DNA of 64,000 bases from an uncultured cyanobacterium (lineage in GTDB: Bacteria > Cyanobacteriota > Cyanobacteriia > Pseudanabaenales > Pseudanabaenaceae), in contig OY969811.1 in assembly GCA_963703315.1 (NCBI GenBank), positions 384,001-448,000 of the forward strand, read 5' to 3'. A program made the position numbers and the translations under genes. How positions within the stretch are numbered: the stretch's first letter is position 1; every line of letters starts with the position of its first letter. The notes under the pieces were generated by a model that saw only the letters and a list, made by a program, of their open reading frames with translations, made no database searches and was not told the DNA's origin. Shown piece by piece: positions 54,220 through 63,906 of this stretch.

Positions 54220-56658
54220 ATGACTAGCTTGACTTTCGCTTCAGAAACATCTAGAAATATCCCCAAGGAACAAGCGTTAGTTCTTTGGTTTGACGAGGTA
54301 GGAATTTCGGATATTCCTCTAGTGGGTGGGAAAAATGCTTCTCTAGGAGAAATGATTCGGCAACTGCAACCCAAAGGGGTAAATGTTCCCAATGGCTTTG
54401 CAACTACTGCCTACGCTTTCCGTTATTTTATTGAGAAAGCAGGTCTAGAAGTCAAACTGCGTGAACTCTTTGCCGATCTCGATATTGAGGACATGAATAA
54501 CCTGCGCGATCGCGGTCGGCAGGCACGAGCTTTAGTTCTCAGCACCCCATTTCCTGACGATCTGCAAATGGCGATCGCTATGTCCTATCAGAAACTCTGC
54601 GATTGCGAGACTTCCTGCGGTAAAGAAGCTGATGTCGCTGTCCGTTCTAGCGCCACCGCCGAAGACTTGCCCGATGCCAGCTTCGCAGGACAACAGGAAA
54701 CCTATCTGAATGTCTATGGTGCGAACGAAGTTGTCGATGCTTGCCATCGCTGCTTTGCCTCACTATTCACCGATCGCGCCATTTCCTACCGTACCATCAA
54801 TGGTTTCGATCATTTCGATGTAGCGCTCTCCGTCGGTGTACAGAAAATGGTACGTTCTGATCTTGCCGCCTCTGGTGTCATGTTTTCTATCGACACCGAA
54901 ACAGGCTTTAAAAATGCAGCGTTAATCACCGCCGCCTATGGCTTAGGTGAAAATGTCGTGCAGGGTGCAGTCAATCCCGACGAGTATTTTGTTTTCAAAC
55001 CCACTCTCAAACAAGGATTCCGTCCCATTCTCGAAAAGCGCCTTGGTACAAAGGAAATCAAGATGGTCTATGACATTGGCGGCGGTAAGCTGACCAAGAA
55101 TATTTCCGTCCCCATTTCCGAACGGGTCAAGTTCGCGATTACCGATGATGAAATCCTCAAACTCGCAGAATGGACTTGTATCATTGAAGATCACTATTCG
55201 GAAGTACGCGGCAAGCTGTCACCAATGGATATTGAATGGGCAAAGGATGGCAAAACTGGTGAGTTGTTCATCGTTCAAGCCCGTCCTGAAACCGTTCAGT
55301 CGCAAAAATCTGGCAACATTCTCAAGAACTACAAGCTGAATGGATCTAGCAATGTCCTGATTGCAGGTCGTGCCGTTGGCGAAATGATTGGTCAAGGCAA
55401 AGCCAACGTAATTCTGGAAGTGAATAACATTGAAGATTTCCAAGCGGGTGAAGTACTGGTCACGAACAAGACTGATCCTGATTGGGAACCCATCATGAAG
55501 AAGGCGAGTGCGATCGTCACAAATCAAGGTGGACGCACCTGCCACGCCGCCATCATTGCGCGAGAAATGGGTATTCCTGCGATCGTTGGTTGCAGCAATG
55601 CTACAGGTGTGATCAAAACTGGTCAGGAAGTCACGATTTCCTGTGCAGAAGGTGAAGAAGGCAAGGTTTATGAGGGGCTAGTTCCCTTTGAAGTAATCGA
55701 AACTTCCCTCGATAATTTGCCTACACTTTCCACCAAAATCTTGATGAATGTGGGTAATCCCGAAGAAGCCTTTGGTTTATCTTCCATTCCCTGCGATGGC
55801 GTTGGCTTAGCCCGTATGGAGTTCATCATTGCTAACCACATCAAAGCCCATCCCCTCGCCCTGATGAACTTCGACACCCTCGAAGACAAAGCGGCGAAAT
55901 GGGAAATCTCCCAACTGACAGCACGCTATGAAAACAAGGCTGACTTCTTTGTAGACAAGTTGGCTCACGGTATCGGCACGATCGCCGCCGCATTTTATCC
56001 CAAGCCTGTTGTGGTGCGAATGTCCGACTTCAAGAGCAACGAATACGCCAATCTCCTTGGTGGTCGCGCCTTTGAACCTACCGAAGAAAATCCGATGATC
56101 GGCTGGCGTGGTGCATCCCGCTACTACGATCCTAAATATCGCGAAGCCTACGGTTTGGAATGTCAAGCCCTGAAGCGTGTCCGCGATGACATGGGCTTAA
56201 CCAACGTGATTCCCATGATTCCTTTCTGTCGCACTCCTGAAGAAGGTCGTAAGGTGCTTGCGGAAATGGAAAAACATGGCTTGAAGCGTGGTGAAAATGG
56301 ATTAGAAGTCTATGTGATGTGCGAAATCCCCAGTAACGTGATCTTGGCGGATGAGTTCTCCCAAGTCTTTGATGGCTTCTCGATTGGTTCCAATGATCTC
56401 ACACAGTTGACCCTCGGCTTAGATCGTGACTCTTCTCTTGTTGCCCATATCTTTGATGAGCGCAATGAAGCGGTTAAGTCAATGGTTCGCACGGTTATTC
56501 AAAAGGCAAAGGCTAATCACCGCAAGATTGGTATTTGTGGTCAAGCTCCTAGTGACTATCCAGAGTTTGCGAAGTTCCTTGTTGAGCAAGGCATTGACTC
56601 CATCAGTCTCAATCCTGATTCTGTCTTGAAGACAATGCTCGAACTCGCGAAAATGTAA
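54220..56658 (+). CDS. ppsA: Phosphoenolpyruvate synthase
   Basis: VGGKNASLGEM, VRSSATAED, GGRTCHAAIIARE, EENPMIGWRG, FSIGSNDLTQ. Confidence 0.98.
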   Translation: MTSLTFASETSRNIPKEQALVLWFDEVGISDIPLVGGKNASLGEMIRQLQPKGVNVPNGFATTAYAFRYFIEKAGLEVKLRELFADLDIEDMNNLRDRGRQARALVLSTPFPDDLQMAIAMSYQKLCDCETSCGKEADVAVRSSATAEDLPDASFAGQQETYLNVYGANEVVDACHRCFASLFTDRAISYRTINGFDHFDVALSVGVQKMVRSDLAASGVMFSIDTETGFKNAALITAAYGLGENVVQGAVNPDEYFVFKPTLKQGFRPILEKRLGTKEIKMVYDIGGGKLTKNISVPISERVKFAITDDEILKLAEWTCIIEDHYSEVRGKLSPMDIEWAKDGKTGELFIVQARPETVQSQKSGNILKNYKLNGSSNVLIAGRAVGEMIGQGKANVILEVNNIEDFQAGEVLVTNKTDPDWEPIMKKASAIVTNQGGRTCHAAIIAREMGIPAIVGCSNATGVIKTGQEVTISCAEGEEGKVYEGLVPFEVIETSLDNLPTLSTKILMNVGNPEEAFGLSSIPCDGVGLARMEFIIANHIKAHPLALMNFDTLEDKAAKWEISQLTARYENKADFFVDKLAHGIGTIAAAFYPKPVVVRMSDFKSNEYANLLGGRAFEPTEENPMIGWRGASRYYDPKYREAYGLECQALKRVRDDMGLTNVIPMIPFCRTPEEGRKVLAEMEKHGLKRGENGLEVYVMCEIPSNVILADEFSQVFDGFSIGSNDLTQLTLGLDRDSSLVAHIFDERNEAVKSMVRTVIQKAKANHRKIGICGQAPSDYPEFAKFLVEQGIDSISLNPDSVLKTMLELAKM

Positions 56659-56659
56659 A

Positions 56660-56691
56660 TAAAAAAGCGGCGCTTAGCGCCGCTTTTTTTA
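56660..56691 (+). terminator. ppsA terminator
   Basis: aaaaaagcggcgc-tta-gcgccgcttttttt; essentially identical copy at ~61446-61476. Confidence 0.8.
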
Positions 56692-56746
56692 TGACTTAAC
56701 TTACTAGCATCAATTAAAATATGAGTAATAGTCTTTAATAATCAAT

Positions 56747-57004
56747 ATGCCTCTCAATGAGCTTTTACCAACTGTTAGCCAATTAAACCATGAGGATAAA
56801 CTTCGGTTAATCCATTTTCTTTTGCTTGCTGTAGCGAAAGAAGAAGGTTGTAATTTGGAAGCAACACAGGTTAATCCAGAACAAAATCTACTCAATCAAT
56901 TAGCATCAACTCATGCAGTCGTATGGTCGCCTCAAGCTGATGCTCAAGCAGTTACAGCCTTATCAGATCTTTTGAGAGATGCAAAGGAAAAAGCAAATGC
57001 TTAA
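56747..57004 (+). CDS. Small hypothetical protein (antitoxin-like)
   Basis: ELLP.V.QL...DKLRLIHFL helical pattern; overlaps next gene. Confidence 0.7.
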   Translation: MPLNELLPTVSQLNHEDKLRLIHFLLLAVAKEEGCNLEATQVNPEQNLLNQLASTHAVVWSPQADAQAVTALSDLLRDAKEKANA

Positions 57005-57416
57005 TGGACAACGCTTTAATTTTATCGAGAAAATTGATAGCGCTGGGCGATCAGTCGTTATGCCCTATTTGCCTTTGCGGCTTACTAATGGCAGTCAATC
57101 TATAGAAGTCCTAGCTTTATTGGATACAGGGGCAAGTGTAAACGTATTACCCTATGACATGGGCTTACAATTAGGAGCAGTTTGGGAAAAGCAAATAGTA
57201 AAAATTCCATTAAGTGGCAATCTTTCTCGCAATGAAGCAAAAGGTTTAGTTTTGTCTGGTACTGTTGGAAATTTCTCAAGCACCTTATTCGCTTTTGCTT
57301 GGACTCAATCAAATGATTCACCTGTAATTCTTGGACATATGAACTTCTTTACTGAGTTCAATGTTTGTTTCTATCGCCATGAATTAGCTTTTGAGATTAG
57401 CTCAGTATCAAGGTAA
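56997..57416 (+). CDS. Retropepsin-like aspartyl protease
   Basis: ALLDTGASVNVLP and C-terminal ILG..NFF. Confidence 0.82.
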   Translation: MLNGQRFNFIEKIDSAGRSVVMPYLPLRLTNGSQSIEVLALLDTGASVNVLPYDMGLQLGAVWEKQIVKIPLSGNLSRNEAKGLVLSGTVGNFSSTLFAFAWTQSNDSPVILGHMNFFTEFNVCFYRHELAFEISSVSR

Positions 57417-57552
57417 TGCGATCACCTAACACACTAAAAAACCTGTAAATTTATTTATCACAAATAAAACAATAATTCAGCAATTATTTGTTAGCTAACT
57501 ATTGACAAAATAGATTTTGCTGTAGTTAAATAAATCAGGACAGAAAATATCC

Positions 57553-57738
57553 AATATTTGGGTATACGTCTTAAGCAGAATACGAGCGCTTCTCAGTTCA
57601 GTGTATATTCATTATTTTGACTTAGCACTAATTGAATGCATTTTGGCAATTATACAAAGAGTACTAGTTCAACATACTGAGTATGCACCGAACTGAGAGG
57701 CGCTTGTATTCTGCTTAAGACGTTTACGGTCAAATATT
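57553..57738 (+). ncRNA. Long imperfect hairpin (putative structured leader or ncRNA)
   Basis: Arms 57566-57629 and 57660-57723 pair at 54/64 Watson-Crick positions plus 5 G-U on the + strand; outer aatatttg/caaatatt extension. Confidence 0.7.
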
Positions 57739-57833
57739 CTAGAGAAGTATGCTATCTATGCATAGGCTTTTCGTATATTTGGCAATTTGATATTTCAAGT
57801 CTGTTAAACAATTATTTAACGGAGCTATTTGAA

Positions 57834-58121
57834 ATGCCTAAGCAAATGAATAAAAAACAAAAGGATGCTCTAAAGTATCAACTTGCCTACGTTATAGGGT
57901 TTGGGGTGTCTTGTTTTTGGAAAACTTGTTGTTCTTCGTCTGATGTATTTACGCTTGATGAGCTAACTCTTGATCATCTAATCCCTAAAAGTAAAGGTGG
58001 CTCGAATAACCGAGAGAATTTACGCCTTACCTGTATTCATTGTAATAGGTCGCGCGGTAATAGCTTATTTCCACCTTCACAAAAGTATAGAAGTTCATCT
58101 TTGAACAACTCTGATAAATAG
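57834..58121 (+). CDS. Small HNH endonuclease
   Basis: TLDHLIPKSKGGSN..ENLRLTC.HCN.SRGN, upstream Cys cluster; RBS ggag. Confidence 0.88.
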   Translation: MPKQMNKKQKDALKYQLAYVIGFGVSCFWKTCCSSSDVFTLDELTLDHLIPKSKGGSNNRENLRLTCIHCNRSRGNSLFPPSQKYRSSSLNNSDK

Positions 58122-58129
58122 CTTTTGTG

Positions 58130-58166
58130 CAACTAAAACCTAGATTTTAAATTTAGGTTTTAGTTG
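58130..58166 (+). other. Intergenic hairpin between HNH gene and rnc
   Basis: caactaaaacctaga-ttttaaa-tttaggttttagttg, ~15-bp stem. Confidence 0.6.
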
Positions 58167-58206
58167 ATTTAGACAACTATATTTCTAACAAATAAACTCA
58201 ATAAAA

Positions 58207-58887
58207 ATGCATAAACTTTTGATTTTTAATGACGAAAAATTACTTCGTCGTGCGCTTACTCATCGCTCTTTTGTGAATGAAAACTTTGATGAATCTGGAC
58301 ATAATGAAAGACTAGAATTTCTTGGCGATGCCATTCTTAATTTCATTAGTGGAGAATATCTATATGAACAAAACCCTGAAATGGCAGAAGATGAAATGAC
58401 TCGCAGACGTTCTGCTCTTGTGGATGAAAAACAACTTTCTCGATTTGCTACTGAAGTTGGACTAGATTTTAGAATCCGTTTGGGAGAAGGTGCAAAAAGA
58501 GAAGGTGGTTTTACTAATCCTAATATTCTGAGCAGTACATTTGAAGCGGTTGTTGGCGCTTATTACTTAGATAATAAGCGTAATATCGATGTACTTCGTC
58601 CTTTAATAGCACAACTATTTGACTCTGTGCCAAAAGATGTCATGGTTGTTCGCTCTAGTATAGATTCCAAAAATAAACTTCAGGAATTTGTGCAGGCAAA
58701 TGGAGAACCAAAGCCAGATTATAAAACTGAGCAGGTCGGCGGAATGTCTCATGCTCCAGAATTTCTAGCTAAAGTTTATGTCAATGGCAAAATTTGTGGT
58801 GAAGGGAAAGGACGTAATAAGAAAGAGGCAGAGAAAGAAGCTGCGGCTGACGCACTAGCTAAACTAAAAAAGCGGGGATTTCTTTAA
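58207..58887 (+). CDS. rnc: Ribonuclease III (accessory paralog)
   Basis: ALTHRS, NERLEFLGDA signature, FEA.VGA.YLD, dsRBD (KNKLQE..Q...H.PEF...G.G.NKKEAE..AA). Confidence 0.95.
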   Translation: MHKLLIFNDEKLLRRALTHRSFVNENFDESGHNERLEFLGDAILNFISGEYLYEQNPEMAEDEMTRRRSALVDEKQLSRFATEVGLDFRIRLGEGAKREGGFTNPNILSSTFEAVVGAYYLDNKRNIDVLRPLIAQLFDSVPKDVMVVRSSIDSKNKLQEFVQANGEPKPDYKTEQVGGMSHAPEFLAKVYVNGKICGEGKGRNKKEAEKEAAADALAKLKKRGFL

Positions 58888-58934
58888 ATACTCAATTCAA
58901 AAGCAATTGGTACATTGGTTGGCTTGAATATCTT

Positions 58935-59129
58935 GGCGATCCCTGTTTGATATTGAGAGAATAGACGATTAGGTTTGTTGGTTATGAGGGGAGATCGCTG
59001 TTTGGTTTTGAGATTTAGGCGATCGGGTTTATGGGTGGTGAGGGGCGATCGCTATTTGATTGGGGAATAGGCGATCGGGTTTATGGGTGGTGAGGGGTGA
59101 TCGCTGTTTGATTTTTATGGAGGGGCGAT
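58935..59129. repeat. HIP1-based tandem repeat cluster 1
   Basis: Alternating ~26-27 nt units GCGATCGCTGTTTGAT... and GCGATCGGGTTTATGGGTGGTGAGG. Confidence 0.85.
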
Positions 59130-59465
59130 TCAACTTAAAATTACTAATATCGACTCAGATGGATTGCTGTCTAGCAAATAAATTTGTTCCTTATATTTAG
59201 TGATTAGTGCTACGAGAATATCACGATTACAATTGCCAATTCTCAACCAGACAAGCTTCGGCGGATGCCCATAAAGCAAACTCCGTTGATAAAAATCTGA
59301 ATCCTTGGAAACTATTGTAAATCCATTGTCTTGAGCATATTCCCAAACATCCTCATCAGGAAATCCCTTCAATCCGCAATCACGAACGTGCATACTCTCT
59401 GGAAAATCTACAGATAATATACGCGGCAACTTTGGAGATAAATTCTCATCAAACAGCAACTTCAT
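59130..59465 (-). CDS. DUF5615 PIN-like toxin
   Basis: MKLLFDENLS...HVRD.GL...DE.VW.YA...IVSKDSDF...PPK.VWLR.GN. Confidence 0.88.
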   Translation of the reverse strand: MKLLFDENLSPKLPRILSVDFPESMHVRDCGLKGFPDEDVWEYAQDNGFTIVSKDSDFYQRSLLYGHPPKLVWLRIGNCNRDILVALITKYKEQIYLLDSNPSESILVILS

Positions 59466-59688
59466 AGGGAACCACTGTTAAACTGCGATCGCGATCAGCT
59501 GCAAAAGCAAAACAAGCCTGTATATCCGCAAGGGTTAAATCAGGAAAATCATCTAATACTTCGTCAACAGTCATCCCACCGCCAAGATAGTCAAACACAT
59601 CTGATACGGCAATGCGTGTATTAACTATACATGGCTTACCACTACGAATATTCGGACTGATGCGTATGCGATCGCGATATTTTTTCAT
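59449..59688 (-). CDS. DUF433 antitoxin-like protein
   Basis: RI.I.P.IRSGKPCI..TRI.V.DV...L..G....E.L.DFPDLT..DI.AC. Confidence 0.88.
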   Translation of the reverse strand: MKKYRDRIRISPNIRSGKPCIVNTRIAVSDVFDYLGGGMTVDEVLDDFPDLTLADIQACFAFAADRDRSLTVVPYEVAV

Positions 59689-59753
59689 AACCAAGATTTG
59701 CACATAACTAATTTCATAATAACAGCGTCCTTAAAAGAATTTAGAGATTGAGG

Positions 59754-59828
59754 GGCGATCGCTGTTTGATTTGGGGGGAAGAGGCGATCGGGTTTTAGGG
59801 GTGATGAGTGGGCGATCGCTGTTTGATT
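59754..59828. repeat. HIP1-based tandem repeat cluster 2
   Basis: Same A/B units as cluster 1. Confidence 0.8.
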
Positions 59829-60107
59829 TTAAGCAACCTCACTCAAAGCGTCACGAATCACCTCATCACTCACACCGTGCCGCTTTAAGCTCTCAATAAA
59901 TATAGAAACAGTATCCCCATCTAATCTCTCAAGATCAGCACGAAGCCCTTGACCAATATAAGCACGAACTAAAGGCTGATATCCAGAAAATCCTAACAAT
60001 GGTGCAACTTTTTTCAAATCTTCAATTACATCCTCAGGAATACGGATTGTCACCGTTGCCATCGGACGATTTCGATCCAATCGTTTTTTTAAAGCTTCAG
60101 TTTTCAT
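59829..60107 (-). CDS. Putative RHH antitoxin partner of BrnT
   Basis: VTIRIPEDVIEDLK.VA..LGFSGYQPL.RAYI; overlaps brnT 3' end. Confidence 0.78.
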   Translation of the reverse strand: MKTEALKKRLDRNRPMATVTIRIPEDVIEDLKKVAPLLGFSGYQPLVRAYIGQGLRADLERLDGDTVSIFIESLKRHGVSDEVIRDALSEVA

Positions 60108-60393
60108 AATATTCATGCTCCTTGCGAGTTGCTTTTCTTGCAGAAATAATCCGAACTAGATCGTTCTCCCGTTCAACATAAACAACGTAAAGAAGATTCC
60201 ATCGTTTATCTAAAGCAATCACAGCGTCTCGTTCCTCATCATTACGACTTGCATCAACTACTACTAAAAATGGATCAAAAAAGGCTTCAGTAGCTTGCTG
60301 AAATGTCACACCATCATGATTAATCTGATTAATTCGAGCCTTCTCCTCATTCCAAACAAATTTAATCCCGTTCAGTACAAAATACACATCCGT
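60097..60393 (-). CDS. BrnT-family toxin; probable start codon reads ACG
   Basis: F.WNEEKA..N...H.GV.F..A..AFFD...ER...I...RIISARKAT.KE. Confidence 0.8.
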   Translation of the reverse strand, partial: TDVYFVLNGIKFVWNEEKARINQINHDGVTFQQATEAFFDPFLVVVDASRNDEERDAVIALDKRWNLLYVVYVERENDLVRIISARKATRKEHEYYEN

Positions 60394-60400
60394 ACCGTAT

Positions 60401-60430
60401 ATTTTAGCCAAAGCGTATTTACGTTGTCAA
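60401..60430 (-). promoter_or_regulatory. Sigma70-type promoter of the brnT cassette
   Basis: TTGACA-18 nt-TAAAAT on the minus strand; 7 nt separate the -10 from the ACG at 60393. Confidence 0.7.
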
Positions 60431-60460
60431 TACAAATTTATCCAAAGATTTTGTGCTGGT

Positions 60461-60579
60461 GGTGATCGCTGTTTGATGTGGAGATTTAGGCGATCGCTGT
60501 TTGATTTGGAGGGATTGGCGATCGGGTTTTGTGAGTTGTGAAGGAGCGATCGCTGTTTGATTTGAGGGAATAGGCTATC
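60461..60579. repeat. HIP1-based tandem repeat cluster 3
   Basis: Same units as cluster 1. Confidence 0.8.
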
Positions 60580-60825
60580 TTATGCCACACTAGCCATAAG
60601 CCTAACTGATGGTCTATCCGCACGAGTCGGCAAACGGAAATAACTCATCGGCAAAGTGACAACTGAAACTGTATTACCCAGCATATCGAAAAACTCAACA
60701 CTATAACCAGTTTCCAATCCAATGACATCATGCCGTTCTACCACCGTTCCAATATCCCCAGCATAAACTCCCTCATCAGGTAGATTAGTTAATAGAATTA
60801 CATCAGAATAAAGTGGAAAATTCAT
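60580..60825 (-). CDS. DUF4926-family protein
   Basis: V.L...LP..G...GD.GTVVE.......GYSVEFFD..G.T..VV.L. Confidence 0.8.
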   Translation of the reverse strand: MNFPLYSDVILLTNLPDEGVYAGDIGTVVERHDVIGLETGYSVEFFDMLGNTVSVVTLPMSYFRLPTRADRPSVRLMASVA

Positions 60826-60843
60826 TGCAGCCTCCAAATATTG

Positions 60844-61176
60844 CTAATCGGGAACTAAAGTAATTAAGCGAGCAAAATCTGTACCTTTATCTATTTGCCA
60901 TACCGTCTTAACAAATAACTGTCTATTTATCGGAGTCAGTAAATTTGCACTAATTTCATATCTCACACCATACGCAGTTTCTTTAACTACATTAGCATCT
61001 ACCCCAAGATGAAATTTACGAATGTCGGCTTCTAACTGTTGCCAATTTTCTAGTGAATATCCAAACAAAATTAATAATTTAGCCTTTGTGCCACCGCGTT
61101 TATGCTCACTATTGAGTAGATATTCAGTTAACTTTGACGGCTCAATGACTGCGCGATCGCTATTCGGAATTCTCAT
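60844..61176 (-). CDS. DUF6883-like protein (putative toxin)
   Basis: A.I...KL..YLLN.EH..G..KA......GY...NW..L...YG.RY...TVW.......RLIT. Confidence 0.72.
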   Translation of the reverse strand: MRIPNSDRAVIEPSKLTEYLLNSEHKRGGTKAKLLILFGYSLENWQQLEADIRKFHLGVDANVVKETAYGVRYEISANLLTPINRQLFVKTVWQIDKGTDFARLITLVPD

Positions 61177-61224
61177 GTATTTTAGCGCTTATCGCTTTAC
61201 TTGAGCCTATCATAATCAATGCGT

Positions 61225-61313
61225 GCGATCGCTGGTTAATTGGAGATTTAGGCGATCGGGTCTTATGGGTGGTGAGGGGCGATCACTGTTTGATATTGAG
61301 GTTTAGGCGATCA
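61225..61313. repeat. HIP1-based tandem repeat cluster 4
   Basis: Same A/B units; abuts the ppsA relic. Confidence 0.8.
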
Positions 61314-61315
61314 CA

Positions 61316-61480
61316 TTTGAGCCTACTGAAGAAGACTCCATTGATTGTCGAACTCCCGAAGTTTGAGCAAGGCACTAAGGCACTCGATCAGTCTCAATCC
61401 TGATTCTGTCTTATAGACGATGCTCGAACTCGCCAAAATGTAAATAAAAAAAGCGGCGCTTAGCGCCGCTTTTTTTATGA
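61316..61480 (+). pseudogene. Collapsed relic of the ppsA 3' end plus terminator
   Basis: Successive blocks match ppsA 56071-56099, 56227-56242, 56582-56593 and 56602-56694. Confidence 0.82.
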
Positions 61481-62113
61481 GTGCAGCATAGAGGTGACTA
61501 AAATCGCAATCTCAGTTCTATTTCGCAGATTTAACTGACTTAAGATATTCGTAATATGATTTTTGACAGTTTTTGTTGAGATGTAGAGATTGGAAGCAAT
61601 TTCTTCATTATTAGCACCAGTAGCAATTAACTTGACGATTTGTCTTTCTCTCGGTGTGAGCTTATTCCAATCCCTTGTCGATACTTCTGAAACCTCAGGA
61701 ATTCTGGCAATTACTTTCCTACCCAAATTCAAATCTAAATGCATATATCCTCGATGCACTGCCTGAATCGCAAAGGATAATTCTTCAGGGAGCGTATTTT
61801 TTAAGATATAGCCCGATGCTCCAAATTTTAAGGCTTGGGAGATATATTCTTCGGTATCATCAACTGTCAGAATTAGAACTTTAGTGTTCGGAAAGAGATC
61901 GCATATTTGTTTAGTAGCTTCGACTCCATCTAGATGCGGCATCTGCACATCCATCAGTACGACATCAGGTTTGAGGAGTTCGACTTGCGTGATCGCTACT
62001 TGCCCATTTTCCGCCTCTCCCACAATCTCTAAGGAAGTTTCATCACCGAGCGAAATCTTCAACGCCCGCCGAATAAAAGAATGATCATCTACAAGCAAAA
62101 CACGGATTTTCAT
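61475..62113 (-). CDS. NarL/LuxR-family response regulator
   Basis: VLLVDDH, VVLMDVQMP, LTPRE...G..NEEIA..LYIS.KTVKNH. Confidence 0.95.
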   Translation of the reverse strand: MKIRVLLVDDHSFIRRALKISLGDETSLEIVGEAENGQVAITQVELLKPDVVLMDVQMPHLDGVEATKQICDLFPNTKVLILTVDDTEEYISQALKFGASGYILKNTLPEELSFAIQAVHRGYMHLDLNLGRKVIARIPEVSEVSTRDWNKLTPRERQIVKLIATGANNEEIASNLYISTKTVKNHITNILSQLNLRNRTEIAILVTSMLHS

Positions 62114-62185
62114 GGGATTTGCCTAGTTATGGGAGACTGCTAAAACCTAGCTTAGCGCTTGCGATCGCTTCCAGCAAGTAACAAT

Positions 62186-62231
62186 AGTCTCAATTATTGA
62201 TAGGACTATAGTCCTATCAATAATTGAGACT
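62186..62231. promoter_or_regulatory. Perfect 46-bp palindrome in divergent intergenic region
   Basis: agtctcaattattgataggacta|tagtcctatcaataattgagact, with no spacer. Confidence 0.65.
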
Positions 62232-62306
62232 TCCTCTTCATGTGTAATTTAAGTTTCCACTTTAGGATGGAAATGTAGAAATTAGGAATTAGAGAGGTTT
62301 ATAGCA

Positions 62307-62675
62307 ATGTTCAAGGTTTTAGTTGTTGAAGACAGCAAAGTTCAAAGAGAAATGATGGCGAGTTTACTCAAAGAGAATAACTTTGAAACTACTACGGCTA
62401 GTAATGGGTTAGAAGCGATCGCTCAGGTTAAAGCAAGTCATCCAGATGTGATCATTTTGGATATCATTATGCCCAATATGCATGGTTATGAGCTTTGTCG
62501 TAAACTGCGAGACAATCCTGATACTTGGGATATCAATATCGTGATGTGTTCATCCAAATCTACAGACGCTGATCGCTATTGGGGATTTCGACAGGGTGCT
62601 AATGCATATATTAGCAAGCCTTTTGCACCTGATGATTTAGTTGATACTGTCAAAGAGCTATTGAAGAATAAATGA
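62307..62675 (+). CDS. CheY/PilH-like single-domain response regulator
   Basis: VLVVEDS, IILDIIMP.M.GYELCR, DRYWG.RQGA.AYI.KPF. Confidence 0.92.
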   Translation: MFKVLVVEDSKVQREMMASLLKENNFETTTASNGLEAIAQVKASHPDVIILDIIMPNMHGYELCRKLRDNPDTWDINIVMCSSKSTDADRYWGFRQGANAYISKPFAPDDLVDTVKELLKNK

Positions 62676-62683
62676 TATCCAAT

Positions 62684-62721
62684 AAAAAAAGCAGCACCAC
62701 TAAGTGGTGCTGCTTTTTTTA
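62684..62721 (+). terminator. Intrinsic terminator
   Basis: aaaaaagcagcaccac-taa-gtggtgctgctttttt. Confidence 0.75.
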
Positions 62722-62810
62722 TTCCAAATTTTACCTTTCCCCTTATCAGCGCGGAGTAATGAAATCCAGTTTAATGCTATTATGTATATACAAAATGTAT
62801 TTATATTTCA

Positions 62811-63095
62811 ATGCAATTTGAGTGAGACGAAAATAAAAATCAGTTAAATCAGCAGAAACACGGTATTAGTTTTGAAGAGGCAAAGGAAATTTTCTATGAC
62901 ACCGTTTTTACTTCCATCAGTGAAAAATTTGACTATGGTGAAATCAGAGAAGTTAGTATCGGTGCAATTCAGAAGGTTTTGATTGTGGCTGTAGTGCATA
63001 CAGATCGTAGTGGTAAGGTTCGGATTATTTCGGCAAGAAAAGCTACCCTTAAAGAAAGAAGAAAATATAATGAATATCTCTCAGAAGCGCCTTGA
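62811..63095 (+). pseudogene. BrnT toxin with premature stop at codon 5
   Basis: MQFE*DENKNQLNQQKHGISFEEA...RIISARKAT.KER; TGA at 62823 where the family has Trp (FEWD). Confidence 0.88.
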
Positions 63096-63324
63096 AGAAA
63101 TCCTTAATATCCCTGATGATGCGATCGATACTTCAGATATTCCCGAACTGGGCGATCGCTTTTGGGAGAATGCAAAAATGGTAACTCCGATCACGAAAAA
63201 GGCGGTTTCGATTCGTTTGGATAGTGATGTTTTGGATTGGTTTAAGGGGCAAGGGAAGGGTTATCAATCAATAATTAATAATGTCTTGCGTACTTACGTC
63301 CATCACCAACAAAACAAAACATAA
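63070..63324 (+). CDS. BrnA-family antitoxin
   Basis: ID.SDIPEL...FW.NA...K..VSIRLD.DVL.WFK.QG.GYQ..IN.VLR.YV. Confidence 0.9.
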   Translation: MNISQKRLEEILNIPDDAIDTSDIPELGDRFWENAKMVTPITKKAVSIRLDSDVLDWFKGQGKGYQSIINNVLRTYVHHQQNKT

Positions 63325-63364
63325 ATCCTAATTTTTCTTTTTACCGTAAATATTGTAAACATTC

Positions 63365-63547
63365 GTAGGGGCATAGCATTCCCGCGACAATTTCTAAATT
63401 TTCAGGTTCCCTTGATTTGGGAATGCTATGCCCAATACCTGACAACGCAGGGACAATTTATCGATGAAAGCGAAGAGGGTTCTGCATTTGCGATTGGAGG
63501 TTTATGTGGGGTGTTTGAGAATGGTGGCGCAAATGCAAAACCCCTAC
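63365..63547. repeat. GTAG-type REP/REPIN-like element
   Basis: GTAGgggcatagcattccc...gggaatgctatgccc and gggttctgcatttgcg...cgcaaatgcaaaacccCTAC. Confidence 0.72.
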
Positions 63548-63568
63548 AAATTTTTTCCTTTTACGTTT

Positions 63569-63841
63569 TTACTTTTGCCTTGTCGCGTGGAGTTCTTGGA
63601 CTAGATTTGTTGCTAATCCTTCTAAATAGAGGGTGTCGTAACTGAGGTCTATTCCATTTGACCATTCCACTGAGCCAGCAACGACTCGTACTGAGGTAAA
63701 TAGCGCTGTGTTTTTTAGTTGGGTAAATACACCTTTGTTGAGGTATGGTTTCAAATCGAAAATTTTTTGTTCGCCATTTTCAAACCAGAGCATTAAACAA
63801 TAGTTCTCAAGGGGCTTAACTTTTTTGACGTAGGGATTCAT
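63569..63841 (-). CDS. DUF2442-family protein
   Basis: V.PL.NY.L.L.F.NGE.K.FDL.PYL..GVF..LK...F..V......VEW.NG.DL. Confidence 0.82.
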   Translation of the reverse strand: MNPYVKKVKPLENYCLMLWFENGEQKIFDLKPYLNKGVFTQLKNTALFTSVRVVAGSVEWSNGIDLSYDTLYLEGLATNLVQELHATRQK

Positions 63842-63906
63842 CATAATCTAGGTTTTAATTTTAGCTCCAAAAAAACTACAATAAACTTAGTTTAAATTAT
63901 AAATTT

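Follow-up and report, generated by a model that had tools for sequence, protein, structure and literature searches.

We analysed a 64,000-nucleotide stretch of DNA from an uncultured cyanobacterium of the family Pseudanabaenaceae (the window; contig OY969811.1 of assembly GCA_963703315.1, positions 384,001 to 448,000), which contains a very long inverted repeat followed by a gene for a small HNH nuclease and by rnc, a gene for RNase III. They form a single cassette at 57502-58887, all on the + strand, with a promoter-like region, a hairpin leader, the HNH gene, a short hairpin and rnc in this order. The parts are listed below, with lengths in nucleotides (nt), base pairs (bp) or amino acids (aa).

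57502..57531, + strand: promoter-like region, with the -35 element TTGACA at 57502-57507 and a -10-like stretch at about 57523-57531
57545..57552, + strand: 5′ strand of a closing helix, P0, from RNAalifold on 16 leaders (alignment columns 17-26 pair with 281-288)
57553..57739, + strand: giant hairpin P1, a stem of ~75 bp with recurrent single mismatches and an invariant 7-bp box at its base
57742..57772, + strand: small stem-loop followed by a U-rich run, from a local fold; it may be an attenuator, a terminator or a processing hairpin
57788..57795, + strand: 3′ strand of the closing helix P0, within a conserved UGAUAUU motif
57791..57836, + strand: local hairpin over the Shine-Dalgarno sequence GGAG and the AUG of the HNH gene, from RNA folding
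57834..58121, + strand: small HNH nuclease gene, 95 aa, occupying the effector slot (PF01844, 9e-12; PF14279, 1e-9)
58130..58166, + strand: intergenic hairpin of ~17-18 bp, with 18-nt arms (58130-58147 and 58149-58166) that are 94% complementary
58207..58887, + strand: RNase III gene rnc, 226 aa, with a nuclease domain (PF14622, 9e-32; PF00636, 7.5e-23) and a domain that binds double-stranded RNA (PF00035, 7.7e-22)

An earlier sequence-only reading had described an inverted repeat of 64 bp, a 95-aa HNH nuclease and a complete rnc on the + strand, a second hairpin of about 15 bp, and a TTGACA at 57502. All of these are present, and the domain matches agree with the two gene assignments. Both repeats are longer than described: the arms of the large one (57562-57637 and 57652-57727) measure 76 nt each and are 82% complementary across a 14-nt spacer, and folding extends the stem to 57553-57739. 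The intergenic hairpin also forms when the RNA of this region is folded, and its sequence hardly varies across 12 of the 13 Pseudanabaena loci that were aligned.

The long hairpin is under RNA-level selection

RNA transcribed from the + strand of 57540-57750 folds into one long hairpin of -96.6 kcal/mol, compared with a mean of -40.7 kcal/mol for shuffled sequences (z -13.6; none of 200 shuffles is as stable), and the - strand of the hairpin region folds at -89.2 kcal/mol. The hairpin is a single copy in the 4.57-Mb genome. The next DNA match is only 19 nt long (E 0.45), and a covariance model built from 12 hairpins, R1, finds one place, at 57555-57735, with scores of 175 bits (+ strand) and 118 bits (- strand). 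A multicopy repeat of the repetitive extragenic palindrome (REP) or miniature inverted-repeat transposable element (MITE) type can be ruled out because of this single copy, in agreement with the sequence-only reading, which had set the hairpin apart from such families and had named a multicopy MITE as the finding that would speak against its proposal. An Rfam 15 scan of 56500-59500 returned 12 matches at E <=1, none at the gathering score, the best being a microRNA hairpin model with 35.2 bits against a required 80.

Sequence comparisons suggest that the pairing itself is preserved. With 23 hairpins as input, RNAalifold predicts 57 pairs; for 38 of them, at least one sequence has both partners changed. 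In this structure 93.1% of the cells are paired. Shuffled alignments average 81.0%, with none of 500 as high as the real one, and sliding the 3′ partners by 1-3 columns lowers the value to 30-43%. We note that the 23 sequences are related and that the tested structure was derived from the same sequences; therefore, the slid control and the pair-type number weigh more than the shuffle count. Two features of the stem are fixed between hairpins: at its foot, 7 base pairs are invariant or altered only by a coupled U-A to C-G switch, and single mismatches recur at the same stem positions. Shortened versions of 109-122 nt retain the base and have lost the tip.

The selection acts on one strand. Across 37 distinct hairpins, the gene strand folds better in 31, with a mean difference of 9.9 kcal/mol, and G-U pairs number 323 on the gene strand and 139 on the opposite strand. 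For the hairpin of the window, the minimum-energy fold of the + strand contains 6 G-U pairs and that of the - strand 2; the sequence-only reading had counted 5 and 2, so that its excess on the + strand is borne out with a slightly different count. Its proposal of selection on an RNA duplex, which a lack of covariation would have contradicted, agrees with the two-sided changes and with the G-U bias. These observations show that the hairpin is under RNA-level selection on the gene strand.

A conserved unit with an exchangeable nuclease

The hairpin, a nuclease gene and rnc occur together in many cyanobacteria. Thirty loci were fetched from 61 related genomes. Fourteen of them have an HNH match of at least 43% identity, all with an rnc orthologue directly downstream on the same strand; the other 16 have weak HNH-domain matches only and no rnc. 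A long hairpin lies upstream of the HNH gene at 12 of the 14 loci, the exceptions being one locus cut by a contig end and one with a degraded HNH gene. Searches with R1 find the hairpin in 15 of 48 genomes of the genus Pseudanabaena and in 13 of 151 genomes sampled across the class, representing 10 of 80 genera, and the newly found loci have a nuclease gene and then rnc downstream in 7/7 and 8/8 cases. Outside the genome of the window, a nuclease gene always follows the hairpin, and rnc comes next at all loci except one. The exception is L180, where a hairpin (65 bits) and an HNH gene are not followed by rnc; RNase III genes are present elsewhere in that genome.

When the search starts from rnc, R1 matches at 25 of 37 cyanobacterial loci. 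The match is on the rnc strand at 24 of them, and at 23 it is uncut and upstream of rnc; the match at L105 is cut by a contig end, and that at L126 is scored on the opposite strand only. Three rnc loci (L109, L121 and L122) have neither hairpin nor nuclease gene, and another (L110) has an open reading frame (ORF) of 123 aa and of unknown kind before rnc and no hairpin. Outside the cyanobacteria 19 rnc loci were found, and R1 has no match in the 4 of them that were searched with it.

In a class sample of 301 genomes, 104 encode an RNase III of the cassette type. A profile of the small HNH protein finds 36 family-level places in the same genomes (E <=1.2e-19), followed by two intermediates at about 1e-17 before generic HNH proteins. 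Thirty of the 36 places are directly upstream of rnc on the same strand, and the remaining six comprise three broken or partial genes and three apparently intact ones. Similarly, 8 of the 12 best short matches to NYN nucleases in the class sample abut rnc, directly upstream of it. No further gene is conserved around the cassette, and neither integrase nor transposase is among the conserved neighbours. Two contigs of one Pseudanabaena assembly (L096 and L100) carry two complete hairpin-HNH-rnc cassettes, which differ in their HNH and hairpin subtypes and have rnc genes ~92-93% identical to that of the window.

The slot between hairpin and rnc is occupied at most loci by one small-HNH family of 71-102 aa, with 17 invariant columns that include His, Asn, Cys and Pro-Pro. 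Membership of this family is defined here by a length of 76-100 aa and the invariant His, Asn, Cys and Pro-Pro columns together with a gene position directly upstream of rnc, and the protein of the window, with all 17 invariant columns and a value of 3.3e-35 against the family profile, is a member. One HNH gene (L094:2442-2915) encodes 157 aa, owing to a tandem duplication that takes in the tail and the C-terminal half of the domain. A role of the C-terminal tail as a conserved docking peptide was considered and rejected, as the tail is common to Pseudanabaena-type sequences only. Complex prediction for an RNase III dimer with the HNH protein gave a score of 0.01, which is uninformative in either direction.

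Other loci have unrelated proteins in the same slot. An NYN protein of 157-264 aa is present at 13 loci fetched through rnc, from Laspinema, Phormidium, Argonema, Floridaenema, Coleofasciculaceae, Oscillatoria, Cyanomargarita and others, and all four of these proteins scanned against Pfam match PF01936; genome scans add three more NYN loci (L082, L083 and L165). Two Pseudanabaena loci have a YoeB-like protein. At one of them (L057), the protein matches PF06769 (YoeB_toxin) at 1e-16, there is no room for an antitoxin gene before it, and the hairpin is shortened; at the other (L102), it is a fragment outside the Pfam scan. One further locus encodes a 219-aa slot protein without a Pfam match, for which the nearest atlas clusters are RnlA/HEPN (scores 0.86-0.89, a weak lead). 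Four NYN loci missed by R1 nonetheless bear very long stems of ~80-130 bp: the inverted-repeat arms at L113 are 120 nt long and 95% complementary, L115 and L116 reach folding energies of -187 and -200 kcal/mol over 280 nt, and the value for L127 is -109 kcal/mol. In two genomes of one genus (L165:1151-1291 and L167:2430-2560), the NYN gene is separated from rnc by a palindromic element of ~130-140 nt with GC-rich sub-hairpins, which resembles a small mobile repeat inserted into the cassette.

Within Pseudanabaena, rnc genes are 84-94% identical while the HNH proteins are only 35-92% identical. The hairpin subtype travels with the HNH subtype, and the last codons of the HNH gene, the intergenic hairpin and rnc are nearly constant. 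In an RNA-library contig of a relative (run X4), 352 other letters replace the 308 letters of the window at 57869-58178, with matching flanks; this is an alternative insert in the nuclease slot within a natural population. Taken together, the constant parts of the cassette are the hairpin, the nuclease slot and the RNase III, and the content of the slot is swappable. The linkage of hairpin, HNH gene and rnc proposed in the sequence-only reading, which unlinked HNH and rnc genes in other genomes would have contradicted, is thus upheld as a conserved unit, in which HNH is not a fixed partner and can be replaced by NYN, YoeB-like and possibly HEPN-like proteins.

Cassette-like variation of the gene next to the hairpin would also be expected of an element acting at the DNA level, namely a site of recombination (an integron attC, for example), a sequence that the HNH nuclease targets or homes to, or a mobile-element end, working as a cruciform or a single-stranded DNA hairpin with no role as RNA. 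The alternative insert in the X4 contig fits this explanation, and folding of single-stranded DNA is also strand-specific. Nevertheless, we consider a DNA-level element very unlikely, because the hairpin is a single copy, is tied to the downstream gene and not to the preceding one, is separated from the upstream gene by a conserved promoter (described below), and shows the excess of G-U pairs expected of RNA. The lack of a conserved integrase or transposase neighbour also speaks against it, as does the lack of mobile relatives: a plasmid tblastn search returned only ordinary rnc genes of <60% identity, and IMG/VR viral contigs contain no relative of the cassette. An integron attC site was rejected on similar observations, namely the single copy, co-variation with the downstream gene, differing upstream genes and a promoter in between; these do not include a run of an attC covariance model and do not cover core-site motifs.

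Leader architecture and a proposed RNase III brake

The region around the hairpin is conserved as well. TTGAC recurs in the same register, ~52 nt before the start of the hairpin model, in 17 of 19 loci from many genera, and a TGn extended -10-like stretch follows it by ~17-18 nt in the aligned loci. For 16 leader sequences that begin 25 nt ahead of the hairpin and run up to the start codon, RNAalifold gives 72 pairs, 42 of them with compensatory changes. They include the 8-bp closing helix P0 (57545-57552 with 57788-57795), several pairs of which are changed on both sides; the UGAUAUU motif at its 3′ strand is nearly invariant in 14 leaders. Since this helix joins sequence 5′ of the hairpin to sequence near the ribosome-binding site, it argues for one continuous leader. 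The segment 57728-57850 folds at -31.4 kcal/mol (z -3.3), with a local hairpin that hides the ribosome-binding site and the AUG. Two small stems lie between hairpin and start codon; when the alignment is read by eye, other genera have them too, with a different sequence. RNAalifold on the hairpin-to-start-codon segment alone finds no consensus structure. These comparisons suggest a leader RNA of ~300 nt, with the ~75-bp stem as its core and a conserved promoter upstream.

Transcripts were looked for in 24 RNA runs (metatranscriptomes), each covering 0.05-0.14 of the stretch with contigs of relatives that are ~90-95% alike, which makes them uninformative on transcript starts, ends and levels. 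RNA-library contigs cover the hairpin, the HNH gene and rnc in three of four runs. A contig of 654 nt spans 57544-58193, from the 5′ edge of the hairpin to just past the intergenic hairpin. Contigs of two studies break between the HNH gene and rnc, near the intergenic hairpin, with a lower depth on the rnc side (421 vs 99; 10.7 vs 4.6), and a third contig runs through the HNH-rnc junction. A generic promoter scan, whose match count equals chance, lists a promoter-like site at 58170-58198, so that rnc may have a promoter of its own.

The small stem-loop with its U-run, seen by eye after the hairpin in many genera, raises the question of whether the hairpin is a separate RNA. Such an RNA, with its own promoter and an end at the stem-loop, might act in trans as an RNA antitoxin or as a decoy for RNase III, the nuclease or both, or might be diced into functional small duplex RNAs. 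This would suit the co-inheritance of hairpin and HNH subtypes next to a nearly constant rnc, the locus with hairpin and HNH gene and no rnc in cis, and the stems of up to ~130 bp at NYN loci, which are far above the need of one cleavage site. On the other hand, a terminator scan makes no call at the stem-loop (57742-57772), P0 favours a continuous leader, the 654-nt contig passes from the hairpin edge through the HNH gene (a weak point), and the hairpin arms have no long complementarity to the downstream mRNA. Small guide RNAs are also a poor fit with HNH, NYN and YoeB proteins of 76-260 aa. We therefore regard a separate hairpin RNA as distinctly improbable. One of two models in the sequence-only reading, in which RNase III processes the stem into small RNAs that guide the HNH protein, finds no support and fits poorly, since unrelated nucleases fill the same slot.

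The genome of the window has four RNase III-family genes. Besides the cassette rnc, these are a short gene and two full-length ones, which are 54% and ~24% identical to the cassette gene. The cassette rnc has its close relatives in Pseudanabaena, and across 14 orthologues its acidic signature residues do not vary. Among 90 RNase III sequences (that of the window and 89 others), the second signature stretch reads Ser-Thr-Phe-Glu in 64 cases and Asn-Thr-Phe-Glu in 10, with Asp in only 2, at a metal-binding position where most bacterial RNase III enzymes have Asp. Solo rnc copies share the Ser, which is therefore a trait of the lineage and not a mark of the cassette. A full-length cassette-type rnc at >=77% identity is found in 17 of 48 Pseudanabaena genomes, with a partial or split one in 3 more, and a paralogue at ~51-57% identity is listed for 42 of the 48, the cassette rnc being an extra copy there. 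The term "dedicated", applied to this RNase III by the sequence-only reading, is thus apt for Pseudanabaena and does not extend to many other genomes, where no second gene of its type accompanies the linked rnc. In the genome of the window, neither of the two core RNase III paralogues has a long leader hairpin.

A tree from a quick search gathers the hairpin-linked RNase III proteins into a single well-supported group (68 rows), in which solo copies are interspersed. The same lineage occurs in fused form: in ~90 cyanobacterial proteins of ~400 aa, a HEPN domain (PF18731) is fused to an RNase III with 40-62% identity to that of the cassette. Most HEPN fusions fall outside the hairpin-linked group in the quick tree, where the placement of the core paralogue of the genome, on a long branch, is unsure. 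None of seven HEPN-RNase III fusion loci (7/7) has a long inverted repeat or an R1 match. At one locus (L150), a HEPN part and an rnc part are matched across one TGA stop, with the rnc inside the hairpin-linked group; this may be a split HEPN gene and rnc. At another (L151, G095:C60:39838-41776), a HEPN-RNase III fusion gene adjoins a second, unfused rnc on the same strand.

RNase III cuts long double-stranded RNA (dsRNA), and both Escherichia coli rnc and Streptomyces absB are autoregulated through RNase III cleavage of their own transcripts. Tentatively, and a little short of an even chance, we read the hairpin as a substrate for RNase III that is encoded in cis, within the leader of the nuclease-rnc transcript, and through which RNase III would brake a toxin-like nuclease. 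The promoter would drive the structured leader of ~300 nt, followed by the nuclease gene, the short hairpin and rnc, and the long stem would serve as a built-in substrate. Cleavage near the invariant stem base would sever the structured 5′ domain from the nuclease mRNA and thereby set its stability or translation. RNase III activity would then keep nuclease expression low and feed back on its own synthesis, in the logic of an RNase antitoxin (type V-like), and the nuclease would be released when RNase III is lost, inhibited or occupied by other dsRNA. We infer leader cleavage, the direction of its effect and the toxicity of the nuclease from comparative patterns, to which the other model of the sequence-only reading, an RNase III brake acting through the leader, appears to be the best fit. 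A passage of PMC10989914 describes the RNase III of Bacillus subtilis as essential because it silences prophage toxins.

A simpler explanation is plain autoregulation, in which the hairpin is an oversized operator for rnc of the rncO kind and the nuclease a cooperating RNA- or DNA-processing enzyme, with no toxin and no role in conflict or defence. Control of RNase III by leader cleavage is well established, the hairpin-linked rnc is the sole copy of its type in many genomes, and solo and hairpin-linked copies interleave in the quick tree. The passages of Anantharaman et al. 2013 that treat the HEPN-RNase III fusions with a dsRNA-binding domain (dsRBD) in cyanobacteria (PMC3710099) read them as "two-headed RNases" acting together. 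What speaks against plain autoregulation is the series of unrelated families in the slot, including a YoeB-type toxin without antitoxin, the divergence of HNH proteins beside similar rnc genes in Pseudanabaena, and the core rnc genes of this genome without such a leader. The Pseudanabaena cassette is also patchy, its flanks differ between genomes, and toxin-antitoxin-type Pfam families are found in 32 of 84 flanking ORFs scanned (of 112 listed). Since unrelated nuclease and toxin families share the slot, rnc stands alone while the nuclease rarely does, and the Pseudanabaena loci lie in toxin-antitoxin surroundings, the toxin brake is favoured, and we hold plain autoregulation to be unlikely, if still a serious contender.

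Several observations weigh against a toxin brake. Three apparently intact small-HNH genes are located away from any listed rnc, and R1 has no match at the two of them that were searched with it, at one of which the ORFs were read. One locus (L163) has HNH and rnc genes without a long hairpin in the 380 nt upstream (z -0.4). As the only copy of its type in many genomes outside Pseudanabaena, the linked rnc may be the housekeeping enzyme with an ordinary autoregulatory leader, and the HEPN-RNase III fusions suggest that nuclease and RNase III act together rather than against each other; both points keep the housekeeping reading alive. The stem-loop and U-run after the hairpin could end a separate hairpin RNA. 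A generic consensus promoter scan does not list the TTGACA site at 57502, with a match count equal to chance, and the RNA-library contigs are a weak hint only, as such libraries may contain DNA.

The toxin brake can be extended to a dsRNA-gauged toxin or immune module, in which the leader hairpin competes with all other cellular dsRNA for RNase III. A flood of dsRNA during phage infection, or a phage factor that blocks RNase III, would leave the leader uncut, and the swappable effector nuclease (HNH, NYN, YoeB-like or HEPN-like) would be made, with RNase III as both sensor and antitoxin. We regard this extension as doubtful at present.

The flanks of the cassette in the window contain further elements. 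Upstream, at 56747-57416, an 85-aa ORF overlaps a 145-aa ORF with weak matches to retropepsin-like aspartyl proteases. The 85-aa ORF is found upstream of the cassette at three other Pseudanabaena loci (84-89% identity), one of which also has the protease ORF; at a fourth locus only the protease ORF is present. The two ORFs may form a separate two-gene module. Directly after rnc, 58920-59120 contains several look-alike units of ~55-60 nt that are rich in the palindrome GCGATCGC, probably the REP/MITE-like family mentioned in the sequence-only reading. Further downstream, 59130-63844 encodes DUF5615 (PIN-like) and DUF433, BrnT and a 95-aa partner, DUF4926 and DUF6883, a BrnA antitoxin and DUF2442, with two response-regulator genes among these toxin-antitoxin-type genes.

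Comparison with known systems

The proposal of the sequence-only reading that the system is undescribed agrees with the searches made, which matched no Rfam family, PADLOC system or paper. PADLOC-DB 2.0 gives no system-level match, with 0 families for rnc and only weak domain-level matches for the HNH and NYN proteins (PtuB, 4e-4; an NYN model, 6e-11). No description of the cassette was found in the literature searched; a list of 811 structures in the supplement of PMC12873609, which lies outside that search, may contain the hairpin.

If the proposed reading is true, a widespread, conserved structured RNA would be added to the RNA families of cyanobacteria, and its stem of 65-130 bp would be among the longest conserved hairpins in bacteria. 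The cassette would show how a general RNase gains a specific regulatory target through a substrate encoded alongside it, and would represent a toxin-control module with an exchangeable effector and a constant RNA and RNase. It would also make two questions testable: why cyanobacteria keep several RNase III genes, and whether bacteria use the dsRNA load as a danger signal. The pair of hairpin and RNase III could be a portable post-transcriptional switch for cyanobacterial engineering.

The closest parallels are the rncO leader of E. coli and the absB leader of Streptomyces, where a hairpin cleavable by RNase III precedes rnc within one transcription unit, with the negative-feedback logic that is predicted here. 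The hairpin of the cassette may likewise lie in the 5′ untranslated region of an rnc transcript: the -35 box stands at a fixed distance, the strand bias agrees with the genes, and RNA-library contigs (possibly DNA) run from the hairpin to the HNH gene and, in one case, into rnc, which may also have a promoter of its own. In contrast to the short hairpin of rncO and absB, the stem of the cassette is 65-130 bp long, precedes a nuclease gene rather than rnc directly, and belongs to a leader of several helices.

Among toxin-antitoxin systems, type V is represented by GhoS/GhoT, in which the antitoxin is an RNase that cuts the toxin mRNA. The proposed logic is similar, as a ribonuclease encoded beside a toxin gene would silence the toxin by mRNA cleavage. 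However, the candidate toxins of the cassette are nucleases (HNH, NYN, YoeB-like) and not a membrane peptide, the gene order differs, and the RNase is a general dsRNA enzyme that would gain its specificity from a hairpin encoded in cis. Type I and type III systems were rejected: the cassette has a single intramolecular hairpin, which shows no long complementarity to the downstream mRNA, and an array of direct repeats was not found. For the B. subtilis type I toxins txpA and yonT, passages of PMC10989914 describe mRNAs that are kept down by RNase III cutting dsRNA. There the duplex forms in trans with an antisense RNA and the housekeeping RNase III is encoded elsewhere, whereas the cassette has an intramolecular hairpin and contains rnc itself.

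Two other systems share single features with the cassette. The HEPN-RNase III-dsRBD fusions, which are also cyanobacterial, combine an RNase III of this lineage with another nuclease; they are single fused proteins, at loci without the long hairpin. HEARO, the omega-RNA of IscB, is a structured RNA beside an HNH-domain gene. In the cassette, however, no Rfam match reaches the gathering score, the HNH protein is small (76-100 aa), with HNH-family Pfam matches only and no RuvC, and the same RNA precedes NYN and YoeB genes. We conclude that pieces of the regulatory logic are known, and that the giant conserved hairpin, the leader of several helices and the swappable nuclease slot appear to be new.

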